Virus record (IMG/VR): IMGVR_UViG_3300031669_000031
Location: 1 to 58,575 of that record
Source: a virus
Lineage: Duplodnaviria; Caudoviricetes
Strand: one strand, 5' to 3'
DNA: 58,575 bases
The notes beneath the pieces are model-generated. The model was not told the origin of the DNA, ran no database searches, and saw nothing but the letters and a program-made list of their open reading frames with translations. This document shows, in pieces, positions 3,596 to 48,666 of this stretch (positions are counted from its first letter, which is position 1; each line of letters starts with the position of its first letter). The translations under genes and the position numbers were made by a program.

Positions 3596-4125
3596 TGCTT
3601 TATAGGGATTGGATGAAAGAGACGATCCCAAAAGTTTTGCTTTGCTATCTTACTGAGCTGAGTATTAAGATCATTAACCTGTTTTTGCAGACTGCCAATA
3701 ATATTATCTTTGGTATTTTCTTTCTGCATATTTGTTACAAGTTTAAGCTTGTGCTCGTATTCTGTTTTAAGGGTCTTTATCGCCTCGTCCTTCTCGCTAA
3801 GCTTCTTGCGATAATCAGTGATCTGCCGGTCTCTCTCATTTAACTGATCCTGTACCTTTCTGCTTTCTTCTGATCTAATGGGGCCAATCACATCTTCTAA
3901 ATTGATATATGTATGAGGGTATATTGACCAATCTTTCCGGGGATCTATTCTATTCATCCCTAATCTAACATCATAGCTTTCTTTATAAGCAGCTACTCGT
4001 TCCCGAACCTCTACCTTAATCATCTTTTGTGAAGTTTCGAGTACTGATACCTTGTATTCCTCTTGCTCTAGCTTTGTTCTCAGGGCATCAAGCTCTGATA
4101 ATGGCATTGTTACATCTGCATTCAT
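3592..4125 (-). CDS. Coiled-coil hypothetical protein
   Basis: Heptad-rich C-terminal half ending in the common FWDRLF tail. Confidence 0.65.
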   Translation of the reverse strand: MNADVTMPLSELDALRTKLEQEEYKVSVLETSQKMIKVEVRERVAAYKESYDVRLGMNRIDPRKDWSIYPHTYINLEDVIGPIRSEESRKVQDQLNERDRQITDYRKKLSEKDEAIKTLKTEYEHKLKLVTNMQKENTKDNIIGSLQKQVNDLNTQLSKIAKQNFWDRLFHPIPIKQ

Positions 4126-4623: not shown

Positions 4624-4992
4624 TTAATTGAACTCCATAGTGCCTTTCTCCGGCTTTTCATTTGATTTTGGTATCTTACCGTCACGCATGGCTTTTGCAC
4701 CGATTATTTTTCCTATTGCAATTCCCCTTTCATAATCCCCACATATATTTTGTTCTGATTCATCATAAGCCCATTTCTCAATATCCTCATCGCTTACAAG
4801 TTCTACTGGCTTGAGATACCAGTCAATAGTAGCCATCCAATCAGCTATTGATTCAGGATCATAAGGATTATATTCAAGATACATTACGCATTTACCATAT
4901 CTGCTTTTATCAAAAACAATATATGTTGTATGTTCTTTCGGCAAATCAGCCTCGGTTTTGATAAAGACTTTTTTGTATGTTTCTTCTTTCAT
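4624..4992 (-). CDS. Hypothetical protein
   Basis: Starts at the shared TAAGCCATGAAAGAA junction. Confidence 0.65.
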   Translation of the reverse strand: MKEETYKKVFIKTEADLPKEHTTYIVFDKSRYGKCVMYLEYNPYDPESIADWMATIDWYLKPVELVSDEDIEKWAYDESEQNICGDYERGIAIGKIIGAKAMRDGKIPKSNEKPEKGTMEFN

Positions 4993-5159
4993 GGCTTAAT
5001 AATTAATCTTATTTCTGCGATACTTAAATCATCCAAAAGTCTTTCAATCCTTGCGTCTGTTAATAATACAGGCACAGTAAATTCATTCTTTTTGTAGTCG
5101 TAATACCTAAATTGATATTCACAATTATTTTTCATTGCTAATAGTAAAAGTTCTTTCAT
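4989..5159 (-). CDS. Hypothetical 56-aa protein (not in ORF track)
   Basis: MKELLLLAMKNNCEYQFRYY...RLIIKP; begins and ends in the repeated 15-nt junction. Confidence 0.55.
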   Translation of the reverse strand: MKELLLLAMKNNCEYQFRYYDYKKNEFTVPVLLTDARIERLLDDLSIAEIRLIIKP

Positions 5160-5452
5160 GGCTTATGTTTTTTAAGTTCTTCTCTACGGCGGTGCATTGC
5201 TTTATGTGTTTTATATCCCCATTGATGATATTCTTTCTTACAAACAGGACAAGTAATAAATTCTTCTTGCGCTCTCTCACGCTCAAATAATATCTCTATC
5301 ACCCACTCTGTATTCTTTACATCTACTGGGTATTCTTTTATTTTTTTACCATATAGAATAACCCTCCACCCTAACCGACCTTCTTTATTAAGCATTTCAA
5401 CTAAACTTTCCTCAACACTGATTAATTCAATTTTATATTCGTATTCTTTCAT
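5156..5452 (-). CDS. DUF4177-like protein with C-terminal C2H2-like zinc finger
   Basis: YEYK...LN..G..GW N-terminus; CPVC-x11-H-x3-H. Confidence 0.55.
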   Translation of the reverse strand: MKEYEYKIELISVEESLVEMLNKEGRLGWRVILYGKKIKEYPVDVKNTEWVIEILFERERAQEEFITCPVCKKEYHQWGYKTHKAMHRRREELKKHKP

Positions 5453-6250: not shown

Positions 6251-6768
6251 TTCTTTGAATTTTGATGTGGATATACTTTATGAGTAACTGCCATAGTAAC
6301 TGCTTCCAGTTCTATTGCTGGTTTCGGGAAGATTACCTCTTCTTTAGCTATAAGATCTAGTACATATTGGGCCCTGGTCATATAATCTTTCTCTGATTTC
6401 ATGTGCTCCTGTGCCTTTGTGCTGGCATACCTCATTGCTGCAATCTTGCGACCAGTAATCTTAGTGAGCTCTCTCCAGCTGTATTTCTTGACCTTAATCA
6501 TCACATAGAAATAAAACTTTCTGGCATTTGCATACGGTACTTGTCTTTCCCCTGGTATCCGGGGCCTCGTCCATTGTAATGAATTGGTGCCCACATATTC
6601 TTTATCAACGATATCAGTGCTACCAAGAACCATATTTTCGGGTATTTCCCATGCCTCGGCTATTATCTCCGTTATTCTCTTTTTCCCTTTAACTCTGAGA
6701 AAAGGATATTCAAGCAGAGGCACCACGTATGCGCTTGGTCCTGATTTTCGATTAATTTGCTCATTCAT
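6247..6768 (-). CDS. DnaA C-terminal-like HTH protein
   Basis: ANARKFYFYVM...YSWRELTKITGRKIAAMRYA resembles the DnaA domain IV HTH. Confidence 0.45.
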   Translation of the reverse strand: MNEQINRKSGPSAYVVPLLEYPFLRVKGKKRITEIIAEAWEIPENMVLGSTDIVDKEYVGTNSLQWTRPRIPGERQVPYANARKFYFYVMIKVKKYSWRELTKITGRKIAAMRYASTKAQEHMKSEKDYMTRAQYVLDLIAKEEVIFPKPAIELEAVTMAVTHKVYPHQNSKK

Positions 6769-17876: not shown

Positions 17877-17959
17877 GCTTTAATTGGTTTACATTACTCC
17901 CGGGGACTCGCACCCCGGCTCCTCTGTATTTCTGCGGACTTGTCACCGCCAATTAAAGC
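17877..17959 (-). other. Multibranch RNA-like structure upstream of the beta-barrel gene
   Basis: 11-bp outer inverted repeat GCTTTAATTGG/CCAATTAAAGC enclosing GCGG-TGACAAGT-CCGC and CCGGGG-TGCGAGT-CCCCGG. Confidence 0.55.
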
Positions 17960-37191: not shown

Positions 37192-37896
37192 ATGAAAATA
37201 ACAGGCATATATAAGATTCAGTCAAGTTCTAAACCTGAAAGGGTTTATATTGGAAGTGCTGTAAGCATACAACGCAGAAGGTATGAACATTTGTACAAGT
37301 TAAGAAAAGGGAAACATGATTCCCCAAAATTTCAAAACCACTACAATAAATACGGTGAATCAGACTTGGTATTTAGTACTATTGAAGAATGTCTTCCCTC
37401 CCTGTTAATTATCAGAGAACAATATTTTATTGACACACTAAAACCTTGGTTTAATGCTCGTTTGATAGCTGAAAGTAATTTAGGGATAAAATGGTCCGAA
37501 GAATCCCGAATAAAGATGATCGGTAATAAAAATGGTGCAGTAAAACGATCACTAGGAACTTGTGAAAACATTAGAAAATCGAAACTTGGAAATAAAAACG
37601 CAGAGGGAGCGATCCGATCAAAAGAAACCAGACAACTAATGGGTAATGCTAAGGTTGGGAATGAATATGGAGTAGGGAATAAAAGCAGAACAGGGCAAAC
37701 TAATTCTAAGGAATCAAACGAAAGCAGGAGTAAATCAATGCAAGGGAAACGTAATGCATTAGGAAGCGTACCTTGGAATAAGGGCAAAACTGGAATGTAT
37801 TCGGAAGAAACTCTTAATAAAATGAGGGGAAATAATAATGGGATGAAAAAAAAGTCTCTAATGAACAGAGAGTTAAAACTTAAAAAATCGGCATAA
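37192..37896 (+). CDS. GIY-YIG homing endonuclease with NUMOD3-like repeats
   Basis: TGIYKIQS...VYIGSA...RR, REQYFID; repeated GNKN motifs and PWNKG; stop overlaps the portal start. Confidence 0.9.
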   Translation: MKITGIYKIQSSSKPERVYIGSAVSIQRRRYEHLYKLRKGKHDSPKFQNHYNKYGESDLVFSTIEECLPSLLIIREQYFIDTLKPWFNARLIAESNLGIKWSEESRIKMIGNKNGAVKRSLGTCENIRKSKLGNKNAEGAIRSKETRQLMGNAKVGNEYGVGNKSRTGQTNSKESNESRSKSMQGKRNALGSVPWNKGKTGMYSEETLNKMRGNNNGMKKKSLMNRELKLKKSA

Positions 37897-39907: not shown

Positions 39908-40687
39908 ATGCCACAAGATCCAGATAACGCTAATTTTGTATTGTATAATAACCTTATAGAGCAGGGATTATACACTAAATCCTATGATGAATTTCAGCAG
40001 CAGTTTTCAGGCAAAGAAAGAATTATGAAATTATTCTCTGCCATGAAAGCAGATGGTCATTACACGAAGTCAGCTAATGAATTTGAGAAGCGATTTTTTA
40101 GTCCATTGCCCGGAACAAAGAAAAATCCTATTGATCCTGCCGAGCCAAAGAAGGTAAAGATACAGGATGAAAGACAGGAAGAAAAGGCAACAGGAGTTCC
40201 TCTTTCTGATAAGTTCCGGTTCCATGCAGAAGTTGATACGCAGCACATACAACAAGTAGTTGCAACAGCAAGGAAGCATGGTGTAAATCCATATACTGCA
40301 CTGGCATTGAATCTCGCAGAAACAAGGTTTGACCCTGAATGGAAAAGTAATCCTTTCCATATGAGTAATTACGACCAGTATGGGGATATCATTGATGAGT
40401 CAATACAATTCTTTGCAGAGAAACAGAAGTATGCGCAAAAGATCGGCAAGAAAGATGAGGCAGACATTATCCAGGCATGGAATGGCTATGGCACTATTAA
40501 GGATAGAGGATATTTGTATGGGATAGATACCGATACAACCCCTATTAACATGAATGAAGATCCCATCTATGGTAAAAGAATAATTGATTTAAGAGAAAAT
40601 GTAATCAAAAAGAATCCTGAGGTTACAAGTATAGTAGATCAGGTTATGGCCTCTAACCCTGAATTAGACCGGCAGTTCTATAAGTAA
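39908..40687 (+). CDS. Virion-associated lysozyme-like (SLT-type) protein with N-terminal tandem repeat
   Basis: Two LY..L...G.YTKS.DEF..F repeats; ARKHGVNPYTALALNLAETRF (catalytic Glu candidate)...IQAWNG. Confidence 0.6.
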   Translation: MPQDPDNANFVLYNNLIEQGLYTKSYDEFQQQFSGKERIMKLFSAMKADGHYTKSANEFEKRFFSPLPGTKKNPIDPAEPKKVKIQDERQEEKATGVPLSDKFRFHAEVDTQHIQQVVATARKHGVNPYTALALNLAETRFDPEWKSNPFHMSNYDQYGDIIDESIQFFAEKQKYAQKIGKKDEADIIQAWNGYGTIKDRGYLYGIDTDTTPINMNEDPIYGKRIIDLRENVIKKNPEVTSIVDQVMASNPELDRQFYK

Positions 40688-40705
40688 AAGAAATCTGAAA
40701 ATAAA

Positions 40706-40737
40706 TTTGTTTTTGTCATAATAGTATTTTACCTTTG
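40706..40737 (+). promoter_or_regulatory. Bacteroidota sigma-A type promoter
   Basis: TTTG (40706-40709), 20 nt spacer, TACCTTTG (40730-40737). Confidence 0.8.
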
Positions 40738-40740
40738 GTA

Positions 40741-40811
40741 TGCACTTTTTTCATGGTACATAGGTTTAGTTATTAGTTAATGGAAGGCAGCTCAGAAATG
40801 GGCTGCTTTTT
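40741..40811 (+). ncRNA. Candidate ~70-nt antisense-type small RNA
   Basis: Consensus promoter, ~43-nt U-rich unstructured body, then a terminator; no ORF. Confidence 0.55.
40784..40811 (+). terminator. Intrinsic terminator
   Basis: AAGGCAGCTCA-GAAA-TGGGCTGCTTTTT. Confidence 0.8.
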
Positions 40812-40833
40812 AAAAGTTCTTTAAAAATCTTAT

Positions 40834-40906
40834 TGCATCGTAGAGCAGAGGCCAGCTCGTTAGGCTCATAACCTAAAGGTCACAGGTTCGAATCCTGTCG
40901 ATGCTA
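40834..40906 (+). tRNA. tRNA-Met(CAT), initiator-type; CCA not encoded
   Basis: Full cloverleaf: TGCATCG/CGATGCT acceptor with 1:72 mismatch, GAGC/GCTC D-stem (A11-U24), TTAGG-CTCATAA-CCTAA, ACAGG-TTCGAAT-CCTGT; boxA-like GTTCTTTAAAA just upstream. Confidence 0.93.
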
Positions 40907-40923
40907 CAAACAACCCGAGAGAA

Positions 40924-41005
40924 AGGACTCTGAAAGTATCAAGTAATTATCCCAATTACAAGATATTTTCCGGTGGGATGAATGCAAAAACGGAATAGGA
41001 GTCCT
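40924..41005 (+). ncRNA. Candidate three-way-junction RNA with loop-loop pairing
   Basis: P1 AGGACTC/GAGTCCT; P2 TATC..GTAATT/AATTAC..GATA with loop ATCCC; P3 TTCCG/CGGAA with GGGAT in its loop. Confidence 0.45.
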
Positions 41006-41020
41006 GAAGAAATCAATACT

Positions 41021-41095
41021 GTGCTGGCAGTAACAATTAATATAAACCTATTAGGGAGTAAGGGCCAGCACCCCGAAACCTAATAGGTATTTTTT
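41021..41095 (+). promoter_or_regulatory. Structured leader of HNH-AP2 gene
   Basis: ACCTATTAGG/CCTAATAGGT stem plus T-run ending at the ATG; its loop GCCAGCAC is complementary to upstream GTGCTGGC. Confidence 0.6.
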
Positions 41096-41605
41096 ATGAA
41101 AGAGATTAAACTAAGCCAACGAGGAAAAAACAAAGATAAATTTGTTGCATTGGTAGATGATGAAGATTTTGAATACCTTAATCAATGGAACTGGTGTGCA
41201 GCAAAGAATGGGAATACTTATTATGTTCAAAGAAGCATAAGAACTAAAGATAAGATAATAACAGTAAAAATGCATCGTGTGATTATGAACACTCCTAATG
41301 GAATAAAAACAGATCACAGAGATCGGAATGGGTTGCATTGTGAGAGGCATAATTTGAGGAACTGTACTAATGCTCAAAATGGAGCAAACAGACAATCATG
41401 GGGGAGATCGAAATATCTTGGCGTAACTTATCAGAATGGAAAAATTAAAGCCCAAATTCAAACGAATGGAAAGACAACTCATTTAGGATATTATAAAACT
41501 GAAGAATTGGCAGCAAAAGCTTATGACACAAAAGCGCAGGAGTTATTCGGAGAATTCGCTAATTTGAATTTTAAGGAGCCTTTTTTAAATAAGGCAGCAG
41601 TGTGA
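41096..41605 (+). CDS. HNH-AP2 homing endonuclease
   Basis: MHRVIM...DHRDRNGLHCERHNLR plus SKYLGV...HLGYY..EELAAKAYD...LFGEFANLNF; paralog of 10318-10800. Confidence 0.9.
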   Translation: MKEIKLSQRGKNKDKFVALVDDEDFEYLNQWNWCAAKNGNTYYVQRSIRTKDKIITVKMHRVIMNTPNGIKTDHRDRNGLHCERHNLRNCTNAQNGANRQSWGRSKYLGVTYQNGKIKAQIQTNGKTTHLGYYKTEELAAKAYDTKAQELFGEFANLNFKEPFLNKAAV

Positions 41606-45066: not shown

Positions 45067-45566
45067 AATTTTATGTATTTTCCGTTAATTATAGATTTAG
45101 ATAACCGTTTGTCTGCCTCTTTCCCATAGGCTATCAATACTGAAGGAGCTCCTCCATTCCATTTGGCCTTCTTGCCTGATACGCTGAAAAAGCTTAACCT
45201 TCCTTTGATAAACAAAACAGAATAAGCATTAGGCCAGACATATTGGAAAAACATCTTAGTCTCTGTGCGAGCAAAGATAAGTGCAATTCCATTATTATGT
45301 ATTGCTAATCTATTGAGCCAAAATACTGTTTCGTTCCCATAAGGAGGATTACACCAGACAAACCCTTCCCAAGGCTGTAACAATCCATTATCTTCAGTAG
45401 TAAAGTGTTTTTTTGCTGTTGCCCAAGGGCGAATAATTGGAGCACAAGGATCAAGATCAAAAGGGCCTAAGTCCAGAATAATATCCGGAGGAGTAAGCCA
45501 TTCATCGCTTATCATTTTTGTTGACTGATGAGATCCCATTCCATTCATAACTATCATTTTATCCAA
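45051..45566 (-). CDS. Phage DNA N6-adenine methyltransferase
   Basis: DEWLTPP, FDLDPCA, WCNPPYG (catalytic), ARTET, GRLSF motifs. Confidence 0.9.
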   Translation of the reverse strand: MDKMIVMNGMGSHQSTKMISDEWLTPPDIILDLGPFDLDPCAPIIRPWATAKKHFTTEDNGLLQPWEGFVWCNPPYGNETVFWLNRLAIHNNGIALIFARTETKMFFQYVWPNAYSVLFIKGRLSFFSVSGKKAKWNGGAPSVLIAYGKEADKRLSKSIINGKYIKLCQTS

Positions 45567-48500
45567 AACTCGCTTCCGAAATTATAATATTTTTGTTTGT
45601 CGTAAATGGTTTACTTACTACAGGCAGTGGAAGATATTTTAAACTCATCCAAACCACCCCGGCTGTAGTAATCGCCACATCATCATGGCATCCATCCACT
45701 GCTCCGATAGTGCCATCAATTTTATATTCAAGAGTGTCCATTTCGTCACACGCTTTATCCCATTTCTCAACATAGAGGTTATCCCTGAGTGCTGCATTAA
45801 GTGTATTTATAATAAGAGACTTAGTTCCTGAATTAGTATGAAATCCATACTTTATAGGTACTTTCATTCTGATCTTTTCAGGGTCTGTCCTTGAAAACAT
45901 ATTAGTATAATACGGAGCAATCTCATCAAGTATAGTTATGAAGTGATCTCCCTCTGTAGATTTTTTTGTTCTCAGTGAATTTGTCTCTATTGCAAGCAGG
46001 GCAATACCATAAAACATGCCAAGCTGTGCTGATATCCATGCAAAGATGTCCTGGTCGCAGTTATGAACAACGTAACAAGCTGTTGAGTATGAATTATCTT
46101 CTTCAACTTCTAAATTATACACGAACCCCGAATACGGCTGACTTGTTTTTGTTTTGACCTTATAGGCTATATTATTTGCATCTTGAAGTAAGGAATACTT
46201 CTTGATTTCCGATACAGTCCATACTATATTGTATCTTGGCCTTTTGCTTTTTATATAGCTATTTTTAGTTTTTGCAATTACCCTGTATATTCCAGGGCGG
46301 TATCCCAGCAATATTAGAATATCCCTTATCTGTCTCGCAAGAATGGGAGATACTGTTGATGCCGAATGTGTTATTGTTTGATCTGTATTGTATGTAGAAC
46401 CATCCCCCTTCCAGTAGCTTTCCAGTAACTCGGATAATAATTCTTTTGAGGATTCTAAAACGACTGAACTTATCTTTTTCTCCCATGAGTGCTCTCCACA
46501 TAATTCAAGAACAAGCGATGCAAGGTGAGTATCACAAACTCTCACCCTGCAAACTCCGACATCCTTATATTCTATGATAGAGCTTTTAAACCCAAGTTTT
46601 AAAAGTTTTTCATAACAGTCTTTTGCTACAGTTTCTCTTTCATAATATGAAAATGAGAAATATACACCATAAGGTTTTTTATTCTTACCCTTATGGTTTA
46701 TATGGCCCTCGGCTAAATAATAACCAAGAATAGAATAAAAGACTTTCAGGTCTGTTATTTCACGAACTGTATCTTTCGACTTACCTCCATTATATTTATT
46801 GATAATGAATGAAGGATTAAATTCTACTCTATTTTTAGAATATGCAATGTATTGTAAATTATTAGCTTCAATCCATTTAGGGTCTCCAATACATTCTTTT
46901 TTATTGTATTGATAACGATTTCTCCAAGGTACTCTTTCAATTTTATTTACAACATTATTGCTGTAAAACGGATGTTCAGGAGTACAGGTAACTGTTTCGT
47001 AATTTCCTTGCGATCTTATTGAAATGACTTCTCCACTATAGTTATTTTTATATGTTTTGATGACTTTTTTGAATCTGTTTTTATGTGTCCATACAAGATC
47101 GCCTACCTTAACATCTTTAATTTGCTTAAATCCATCAGATGTATATATCAGTGTGTCAGGGACAAAGCAATGGCCCCACCAGGTAGCAACAATCTCAGGT
47201 CTGCCTCCATCCATCATCCAGTATCGATCTATAACCCTTAGGCAAGAATAGTCAGCAAGAATAGTCCTTCCTCCAACGTCCCCAAAGATAGCATACCTAT
47301 CAGTGATATCTTCTGTTATATCCGGCATACTCCATATAAGCAGATTCCCTCTTGGATTTTCAAGAAACTTTATATTCTTCAGGCTATCGGGGCCAACCTG
47401 TGCATCTCCTTTTAATTCTCCGACATAGACAGGTTTCACGCAACCATTGCGCATGTTAAGTACATATTCTGGTGAAAATACCCTTCTTCCTGTTGAGGCG
47501 AATGCTTCTTTATCGTTACTTGGAAAATCTTCATTCATCCTCCATGTATCGTAGTTCTCTCCTATCTTAGTATCAAAATACCATTTGATACCTTCCAGGG
47601 TAGCTCCTATGCTCCAAAGATATTTTGCATAGCCTGTAGTTTCCGCAAGCATCCATTCAATGAACTTAGGTAAATCATTCTCTTTTATTGTTTTCTGATA
47701 TCTCTCTATCTCAAACCATGCGACAAATACAGGATCATACGAGCTCTCTCCTTTTTTTGCAGCCTGCCATTCCCTGTGAAAAGCATTGCCTACACCTTTA
47801 GCTGTGGATTCAAGGACTATAATAGAGTCAGGTGCATTGGGGACTGTTGACCGGAGATTCTGCAGAAGATCTTCCGTTGACCGCTGTGGAGTTGATTTGA
47901 ACTTCCCAAGCTCCGAAACATGAAGCATTGCGAAGTCATAAGATGCAAGGCTTTCCGGCTTCTGTGCAGAGCCAACTCCAACAATACAATTTCTCTCTTT
48001 GATCATCTTAGTCTTGCTGGACCCTTCATATGGCACGAATGTTATTGTTCCGAACTGTTGCGGATATAACCTTCCGAGCCTCCGGTACATACCTCTTATG
48101 TTTCTGGCCTGATCATCTACATCAGCAATGATAGCAGAATGCCAGTTGGTTTTTAGTACTCGCTGAATCCATGCCATATATATTTGAACGAGAGTCGATC
48201 CTCCCCATTGGCGAGCTTTAAGAAGTACAATCCTGATCGGCACTCCTTCGGTACGCATTTTTTCAAGACGGCTAAGTAATTTTCTTTGAGCCCTGTTAAG
48301 GATGAATGGGATCTCCTGCTTGGTTACCTTATCCTGAATCTTCGCACATACAAAGGCCCAAAATTCAAAGTCATAATCAAATCGTTTCTTACTTAAATCG
48401 TTTATGATAGCCTGAGTTGTAAGAAAATCATTTGTCCCTACAGCCTTTTCTACCGATCCCTCATCTCTTATCTTTTGGAGTATTGGCAGATCATCGAACA

Positions 48501-48666
48501 TTTGTTTTGGGAAGTAGATAGAATAATTAACGTCTGCATGGGAAAAATCTACTTTGATTCGCTTTAAAGGAGAACCTAACCCGGTTGCAGGGTTATAGGG
48601 AGTATTCAATTTATCCCTACGAATCTTGTTTTCAGCAAGGATCTTATCTAATTGATCACTTGGCAT
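45559..48666 (-). CDS. terL: Terminase large subunit containing an intein
   Basis: LNRAQ, LKARQWGGST (Walker A), LHVSE, ESTAKG, GDVGG and HDD nuclease motifs; ~665 aa after splicing. Confidence 0.92.
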   Translation of the reverse strand: MPSDQLDKILAENKIRRDKLNTPYNPATGLGSPLKRIKVDFSHADVNYSIYFPKQMFDDLPILQKIRDEGSVEKAVGTNDFLTTQAIINDLSKKRFDYDFEFWAFVCAKIQDKVTKQEIPFILNRAQRKLLSRLEKMRTEGVPIRIVLLKARQWGGSTLVQIYMAWIQRVLKTNWHSAIIADVDDQARNIRGMYRRLGRLYPQQFGTITFVPYEGSSKTKMIKERNCIVGVGSAQKPESLASYDFAMLHVSELGKFKSTPQRSTEDLLQNLRSTVPNAPDSIIVLESTAKGVGNAFHREWQAAKKGESSYDPVFVAWFEIERYQKTIKENDLPKFIEWMLAETTGYAKYLWSIGATLEGIKWYFDTKIGENYDTWRMNEDFPSNDKEAFASTGRRVFSPEYVLNMRNGCVKPVYVGELKGDAQVGPDSLKNIKFLENPRGNLLIWSMPDITEDITDRYAIFGDVGGRTILADYSCLRVIDRYWMMDGGRPEIVATWWGHCFVPDTLIYTSDGFKQIKDVKVGDLVWTHKNRFKKVIKTYKNNYSGEVISIRSQGNYETVTCTPEHPFYSNNVVNKIERVPWRNRYQYNKKECIGDPKWIEANNLQYIAYSKNRVEFNPSFIINKYNGGKSKDTVREITDLKVFYSILGYYLAEGHINHKGKNKKPYGVYFSFSYYERETVAKDCYEKLLKLGFKSSIIEYKDVGVCRVRVCDTHLASLVLELCGEHSWEKKISSVVLESSKELLSELLESYWKGDGSTYNTDQTITHSASTVSPILARQIRDILILLGYRPGIYRVIAKTKNSYIKSKRPRYNIVWTVSEIKKYSLLQDANNIAYKVKTKTSQPYSGFVYNLEVEEDNSYSTACYVVHNCDQDIFAWISAQLGMFYGIALLAIETNSLRTKKSTEGDHFITILDEIAPYYTNMFSRTDPEKIRMKVPIKYGFHTNSGTKSLIINTLNAALRDNLYVEKWDKACDEMDTLEYKIDGTIGAVDGCHDDVAITTAGVVWMSLKYLPLPVVSKPFTTNKNIIISEASFG
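46060..47169 (-). mobile_element. 370-aa intein with LAGLIDADG homing endonuclease
   Basis: N-splice GH|CFVPDTLI, block B TCTPEHPF, LGYYLAEG and YWKGDG motifs, C-splice VYNLEVEEDNSY...VVHN|C. Confidence 0.93.

Follow-up and report, generated by a model that had tools for sequence, protein, structure and literature searches.

A candidate FopS-like small RNA gene behind the portal module of a tailed phage from soil

Short RNAs of enterobacterial phages, such as lambda OOP, P22 Sar and DicF, block translation by pairing with their targets either in antisense or in trans. The element described here would resemble these RNAs in its pairing design, whereas its sequence, host and chaperone dependence are unrelated. 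A closer counterpart is FopS of Bacteroides thetaiotaomicron, which PMC11697453 presents as a set of paralogous sRNAs of 65–70 nt that are transcribed from canonical promoters and consist of an open 5′ stretch followed by a terminator. According to the same paper, FopS blocks translation of susC-like (TonB-dependent transporter) mRNAs through pairing beside the start codon, and RbpB counteracts FopS, so that this repression is relieved (PMC11697453). GibS (RF04182) is alike in having a long open 5′ seed across start codons but is longer (ca. 145 nt), carries a second seed and uses a different promoter type (PMC7366714). In the literature searched on FopS in Bacteroides and on phage sRNAs and SusC, including a 2026 review, FopS RNAs have so far been described on the chromosomes of gut Bacteroidaceae, where they regulate the uptake of glycans, and phage FopS is treated only in one passing sentence of PMC11697453 on a FopS sequence in a Caudovirales phage.

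Anatomy of the unit and its relation to FopS

The window, i.e., the whole stretch of DNA analysed, is an entire IMG/VR record of 58,575 bp from a tailed phage (ca. 90% complete). Portal, terminase-like, RecT, SbcC-like and tail-spike genes were recognised in it, and the host of this soil phage is probably a member of Bacteroidota. The features of the locus are as follows.

39908–40687, + strand: gene encoding a protein of 259 aa, function not assigned (no PHROG or Pfam family), upstream of the sRNA unit
40706–40737, + strand: promoter of the Bacteroidota sigma-A type (−33 TTTG at 40706–40709, 20-nt spacer, −7 box TACCTTTG at 40730–40737)
40742–40811, + strand: predicted sRNA of ca. 70 nt, with both ends inferred
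40742–40780, + strand: single-stranded 5′ part and putative seed, with the core TTTTTCATGGTA at 40747–40758 and then CATAGGTTTAG
40781–40812, + strand: intrinsic terminator hairpin and T-run (14 pairs, 5 of them G-C, loop of 4)
40813–40833, + strand: spacer of 21 nt before the tRNA, with AGTTCTTTAA in common with the tRNA leader of the relative L452
40834–40907, + strand: tRNA-Met (CAU), for which no separate promoter was recognised
40908–41005, + strand: conserved non-coding fold following the tRNA, with AGGACUC/GAGUCCU as its closing stem, at the end of the conserved block
41096–41605, + strand: HNH homing endonuclease gene, absent in the relative L089
2922–2939, − strand: candidate own-genome seed site at the start of gene 2587–2934 (16 contiguous pairs, the best by contiguity)

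A sequence-only reading had taken 40706–40811 for a promoter, an unstructured stretch and a terminator without an ORF, and pattern counts, folding and an ORF scan bore this out. The promoter has the form TTTG-N20-TAccTTTG (TTTG-N20-TACCTTTG at 40706–40737), which is that of the sigma-ABfr promoters of FopS. The wider pattern TTTG-N17-23-TAnnTTTG occurs six times in the window against 2.47 expected, a count reached in 4 of 100 shuffles, and three of the six matches are located in non-coding DNA, which by the gene set of this analysis makes up ca. 4% of the window. On the model of bacterial FopS-like genes, the 5′ end of the sRNA was placed 5 nt past the −7 box; the 3′ end was set within the T-run, and the core begins 9 nt past the −7 box. 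The RNA fold of 40740–40815 has an energy of −20.9 kcal/mol (z −3.51), equalled in none of 200 shuffles, and its first ca. 40 nt are predicted to be essentially open. No ORF of at least 20 aa was found on either strand of 40688–40903. In size and build, the predicted 70-nt RNA, with its open 5′ part, 14-pair hairpin and T-run, would correspond to FopS. The complement of the open 5′ part reads as a Bacteroidota start region, …CUAAACCUAUGUACC AUG AAA AAA GUG, just as the earlier reading had described the reverse complement of the body as an A-rich leader followed by ATG-AAA-AAA-GTG.

The 12-nt core UUUUUCAUGGUA is identical to the FopS core and has a single match in the window, where 0.01 matches would be expected and 1 of 100 shuffles reached that count. 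At the level of sequence, it is this core that appears to carry weight for the link to FopS, the Rfam scores alone being noise. The FopS family RF04319 aligned over the full model (1–71) at 40740–40816 with 18.5 bits, below the gathering score of 56; the E value was 2.2 in an all-family scan of 40650–41110 and 0.066 as a single family over the genome, where this was the top match. In a control region with another promoter-terminator unit, 32 Rfam matches appeared at E up to 10, which shows the noise level of such scores. GibS (RF04182) had no match in 40650–41110 at E up to 10. With a model built on 67 bacterial FopS-like genes (R1), the sRNA unit was the best match in the window (15.6 bits, E 0.21), which is not significant, nor were the nhmmer results on the unit (E 1.2–3.2), and the ungapped 22-nt bacterial consensus with up to three mismatches gave no match to the window element. 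Over the R1/R1′ seed of FopS (positions 1–21), the 12-nt core is identical and the remainder aligns only with an offset of 7 nt.

The element differs from FopS in its unrelated hairpin, its offset and dissimilar post-core sequence and its soil rather than gut origin. It also differs in copy number, with a single phage copy in the 58.6-kb record compared with the 12–15 copies per bacterial genome of the multicopy FopS. By score, the element lies outside RF04319; judged on the whole analysis, it is a real and conserved element that would most likely work like FopS. The reading we prefer for the RNA is a divergent, phage-carried relative of the FopS/GibS class. With moderate confidence, we propose that the unit encodes a regulatory RNA of this kind that acts in trans.

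The element in related phages

Locus scans with a single protein (the 259-aa protein or the portal) found nothing, exact stretches of the unit occurred in 0 viral contigs, and blastn against deposited phages returned tRNA matches only. A viral scan with 16 portal sequences yielded 48 loci, 44 of them informative. Behind the portal module and on the portal strand, an element consisting of a U-run, CAU, (U)AGGUU repeats, a hairpin and a T-run was present in 26 of the 44; in 22 it begins 1–16 nt past the portal stop codon, and in the other four it is found at a greater distance downstream. The window has the order portal, 259-aa gene and element, all on the same strand, so that the element is again situated behind the portal module and ends in a terminator. 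Portal identities across the loci with an element range from 44 to 83%. Of 21 distinct elements, 20 have the hairpin and T-run, and the stem sequences bear no relation to one another; CAU is found in 14 and missing from 7. A match of the terminator alone, in L162, was rejected as coincidence, the body being absent there.

When the 44-nt 5′ part of the window element was aligned to the elements of 11 relatives, 9 of the alignments had P < 0.05 (1000 dinucleotide shuffles), and for two of the relatives (L446 and L437) the alignment was reached in 0 of 1000 shuffles. A sequence-only profile of 19 relatives' elements (R2) ranked the window element third in the window (5.0 bits, E 2.3). When R1 was run over 492 kb, phage elements topped the hit list (best 27.0 bits, E 0.0089). 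RF04319 itself matched three of five relatives' records with per-genome E values of 3.7e-5, 2.6e-4 and 0.0016. The elements scored 32.2, 30.5, 21.6 and 13.1 bits, none of them reaching the gathering score, and one of the five had no match. Conservation in related phages, on which the sequence-only reading had made its proposal depend, is seen in 26 of the 44 informative portal loci. A small ORF in antisense was considered and rejected, as the ORFs from ATG are 6–40 aa long and mutually unlike in 10 of 10 cases. Between flanking UA and U, the terminator loop reads CGAGU in L452, L434, L440, L444 and L437 and CGAGA in L442, on stems that differ; the kept loop in these six relatives hints that the loop has a role.

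A promoter in front of the element is present in 2 of the 21 distinct elements, those of the window and L089 only, and is identical in both. The other 19 have no promoter in front and directly follow a stop codon, at an mRNA 3′ end, as does FopS-14, a 3′-UTR-derived member of the family (PMC11697453); in contrast to FopS-14, the window copy has its own promoter, and the parental mRNA is the phage portal/late mRNA. In L452 (portal identity 83%), the portal stop codon is followed by the element with its terminator, a homologous promoter, a 17-nt leader with AGTTCTTTAA, tRNA-Met and a folded stretch. Because the window element lies between a promoter of the L452 type and the leader, the putative stand-alone gene is, as far as the order of these sequences indicates, a derived form of the portal-module 3′-UTR element, a relationship that the sequence-only reading had not recognised. 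Similar promoters occur after the 259-aa homologue in L103, L087, L098, L093 and L008/L009. With a promoter in front of the element, the RNA would be made as its own transcript in the window phage and also in L089, while in most relatives it would form the 3′ terminus of a late mRNA. No terminator was found between the 259-aa gene and the sRNA element, and late transcripts may therefore end in the element in the window phage as well.

Without a promoter of its own, the tRNA-Met downstream would depend on read-through of the terminator, by which we suppose it to be made. In the window, the 14-pair terminator sits between the promoter and the tRNA-Met, so that the intervening sequence is not a plain tRNA 5′ leader, whereas in L452 the promoter directly precedes the homologous tRNA and such a leader is present. 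A strong terminator in this position is odd if the tRNA matters, and this counts against the reading of the unit as a regulatory RNA gene. The tRNA itself has a non-standard U1-U72 pair (cmscan alignment), A11:U24 and two G-C pairs by the anticodon loop, features by which it would lean to the initiator type. The folded stretch at 40908–41005 shows one difference in 98 nt from L089 and has no Rfam family; positions 6685–6810 of L452 appear by eye to be its counterpart, with a different closing stem. A general linkage of sRNA and tRNA was considered and rejected, since among the FopS-type sites listed 6 of 84 in bacteria and 2 of 80 in viruses have a tRNA no more than 400 nt away.

L089, a metagenome contig, carries a nearly unchanged sRNA unit, with five flanking segments 88–94% identical to the window. 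Its allele of the mosaic 259-aa gene shows only 40% aa identity. The portal-sRNA-tRNA module is flanked by GIY-YIG-like and HNH homing endonuclease genes, and 37192–37896, 39908–40687 and 41096–41605 form a mosaic neighbourhood. Across 40687–41005, there are 5 differences from L089 in 319 nt, with none in the promoter and none in the tRNA: three are in the seed (40755, 40756 and 40760), one is in the stem and one is after the tRNA. The stem change, A40784G, keeps the pairing with U40809 as G-U in the predicted fold. Movement of a 319-bp block between unrelated phages was rejected as an explanation, given the similarity of the L089 flanks, among which the 259-aa gene alone is a distant allele. 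Three changes in the 39 nt of the seed region, compared with ca. 7% elsewhere between the two phages, correspond to about the background rate, a level as compatible with an absence of constraint as it is with retargeting. The runs listed as containing the sequence were six from soil DNA, with no RNA run among them. Two of the soil runs yielded the 319-nt block as a contig of its own, which carried the L089 allele and was deeper than flanks identical to the window, and another run contained a 788-nt contig with the window allele. This suggests that both alleles circulate on one backbone, with the caveat that minor variants are dropped from contigs.

These data bear directly on the best-surviving alternative, which we nevertheless consider unlikely, namely that there is no regulatory RNA at all. 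On this view, the late (portal) operon would simply end at the hairpin, with the U/G-rich stretch as its 3′ UTR, and the promoter would serve the tRNA, into whose leader a local rearrangement had brought the terminator. Such an arrangement would account for the 19 promoterless elements directly after stop codons, for the homologous promoter that in L452 follows the terminator and directly precedes the tRNA, for the background rate of seed changes between the alleles and for the non-significant profile scores in the window. A plain 3′ UTR, however, would not be expected to retain U-run-CAU-(U)AGGUU at portal identities of 44–83% alongside hairpins whose sequence is replaced altogether, nor to match the FopS model as the relatives' elements do (E 3.7e-5 and 2.6e-4), and a promoter whose transcripts end before the tRNA would be a poor tRNA promoter. 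That the element is instead a DNA-level site, whose (T)AGGTT repeats bind a phage packaging or transcription factor, is suggested by the short direct repeats close to the portal gene but is extremely improbable, since the element is always on the portal strand and just before the terminator, and the terminase gene is located elsewhere.

Candidate targets and mode of action

If the unit encodes a trans-acting regulatory RNA, the RNA would, by analogy with FopS, pair across the start codon of target mRNAs and block initiation. Within the window, bases 3–18 of the sRNA pair with GUAUCAUGAAAAAAGU at the start of gene 2587–2934 through 16 contiguous pairs, one of them G:U. The sequence-only reading had pointed out this match and allowed for chance; the match proved to be real. 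An 18-nt target-like pattern with up to three mismatches occurs in the window only at the start of this gene and as the self-antisense, against 0.03 expected, and two matches were found in 0 of 100 shuffles. The 16 pairs at an own start have a P of 0.006 against 500 seed shuffles. Runs of at least 11 contiguous pairs were found at 8 of 75 own start regions and 4 of 123 internal windows.

These counts and the presence of the target-like pattern at gene 2587–2934 would suit an RNA that times the phage's own genes, for example gene 2587–2934 and the small genes at 4624–5452, rather than acting on the host. We consider this very unlikely: duplex energy ranks the site only about fifth or sixth in the genome, and an L089-type allele would cut the pairing there to 11. 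Own-genome sites with up to three mismatches were found in neither of the two complete or near-complete genomes of relatives (L452 and L446), and a local search at the loci of eight relatives turned up a single start-like site, which lies in L446. Duplex scans, for their part, revealed no outstanding target. Because the relatives hold no own-genome site, host mRNAs (SusC-like or those of other exported proteins) appear the likelier target class for the proposed regulatory RNA, with gene 2587–2934 as a second candidate.

Three seed-like matches in bacterial genomes, each with an extra base, were examined as possible sRNAs and rejected, as they are the antisense of real gene starts. All three starts belong to genes other than envelope genes, two of them for unknown proteins and one for a BlaI-like repressor, and matches of this kind at the starts of unrelated genes imply that the seed mirrors a generic start region. 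The earlier proposal, a phage RNA directed against translation starts of host envelope mRNAs that might bring about superinfection exclusion or host remodelling, stands in part. The ORF-less promoter-to-terminator unit with an anti-start 5′ part corresponds to the published FopS design (PMC11697453), has the FopS core and is conserved in relatives, whereas the three non-envelope starts lend the envelope targets no support. A crude pairing comparison with SusC genes failed its positive control: across the 30 such genes taken from a Parabacteroides genome, the canonical seed native to it scored 9 of 30 against 29 of 120.

The RNA might also act on a protein. As a FopS mimic, it would titrate the host RRM protein RbpB, or a similar protein, the factor that counters FopS. 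RbpB binds both FopS and GibS by way of a long motif within their single-stranded 5′ part and relieves FopS repression (PMC11697453); moreover, the U/G-rich (U)AGGUU repeat, and not CAU, is the most conserved feature of the phage elements. We nonetheless regard this explanation as very unlikely. A more far-reaching form of the regulatory RNA reading would have a family of soil and freshwater Bacteroidota phages hijack the host FopS/RbpB circuit, with a FopS mimic, supplied late in infection with the portal mRNA and in the window phage also from its own promoter, shutting off translation of outer-membrane transporters, possibly the phages' own receptors, and with the clustered seed differences reflecting arms-race retargeting. 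This scenario is speculative and, taken as a whole, quite unlikely.

FopS-type genes in bacteria and other phages

A search pattern combining the Rfam consensus with the window sequence matched at least 120 stretches in prokaryote genomes. Among the matches listed, nearly all were from Bacteroidales, reaching well beyond Bacteroidaceae to Paludibacter, Dysgonomonas, Muribaculaceae, Prevotella-like bacteria and Parabacteroides. At the 76 usable bacterial FopS-like sites among these listed matches, a TAnnTTTG box lies just upstream in 73 and a T-run follows 40–85 nt on in 71. In an even sample of the phylum, the seed pattern was found in 10 of 401 genomes, compared with 1 of 401 for the reversed control. 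FopS-type genes were present in 3–5 copies in three bacterial genomes examined, and one FopS-type copy in Segatella copri (L238, 4635–4696) lies between tRNA genes and has no promoter box.

A near-canonical FopS seed was also found in at least 108 IMG/VR stretches, with 24 variants of 75 nt among the matches listed. The main viral type sits among replication, RecT, resolvase and repressor genes, and a −7 box was seen at 1 of the 78 usable viral sites among the listed matches. The Bacteroides phage BF1-TP2 (PQ571263.1) has a related copy after gp7 at ca. 3750–3830, overlapped by a gene annotated as ‘hypothetical protein’. These canonical-seed copies, in IMG/VR and in BF1-TP2, share with the window element a phage location and a FopS-type 5′ part, although most of the viral copies lack the −7 box. 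They also differ in being near-canonical and in belonging to replication and recombination modules of gut-type phages, whereas the window element is divergent, lies behind a portal module and belongs to another phage family.

Here, the FopS design is seen outside Bacteroidaceae, in these viral stretches and in one cultured Bacteroides fragilis phage, where it is unannotated, and as a divergent syntenic element in a family of environmental phages. Should phages employ anti-start-codon RNAs of the host type, this would provide a testable route to the reprogramming of the Bacteroidota cell surface or nutrient uptake, and BF1-TP2 with its cultured host is a tractable experimental system.

Three further observations concern other parts of the window. 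An ORF of 1035 aa at 45559–48666 (− strand) has weak PHROG matches to the terminase large subunit and to a ribonucleotide-reductase-like protein and is possibly a terminase carrying an insert. A second ORF-less promoter-to-terminator unit occurs at 2035–1912 (− strand), with TTTG-N-TACCTTTG at 2035–2005, ca. 85 nt including two small hairpins, and a strong terminator (fold −29.5 kcal/mol, z −4.73); its Rfam matches were at noise level only. Finally, a Type-P3 twister ribozyme was identified at 17880–17956 (− strand) with 45.6 bits, above the gathering score of 39.9 (E 1.3e-6).
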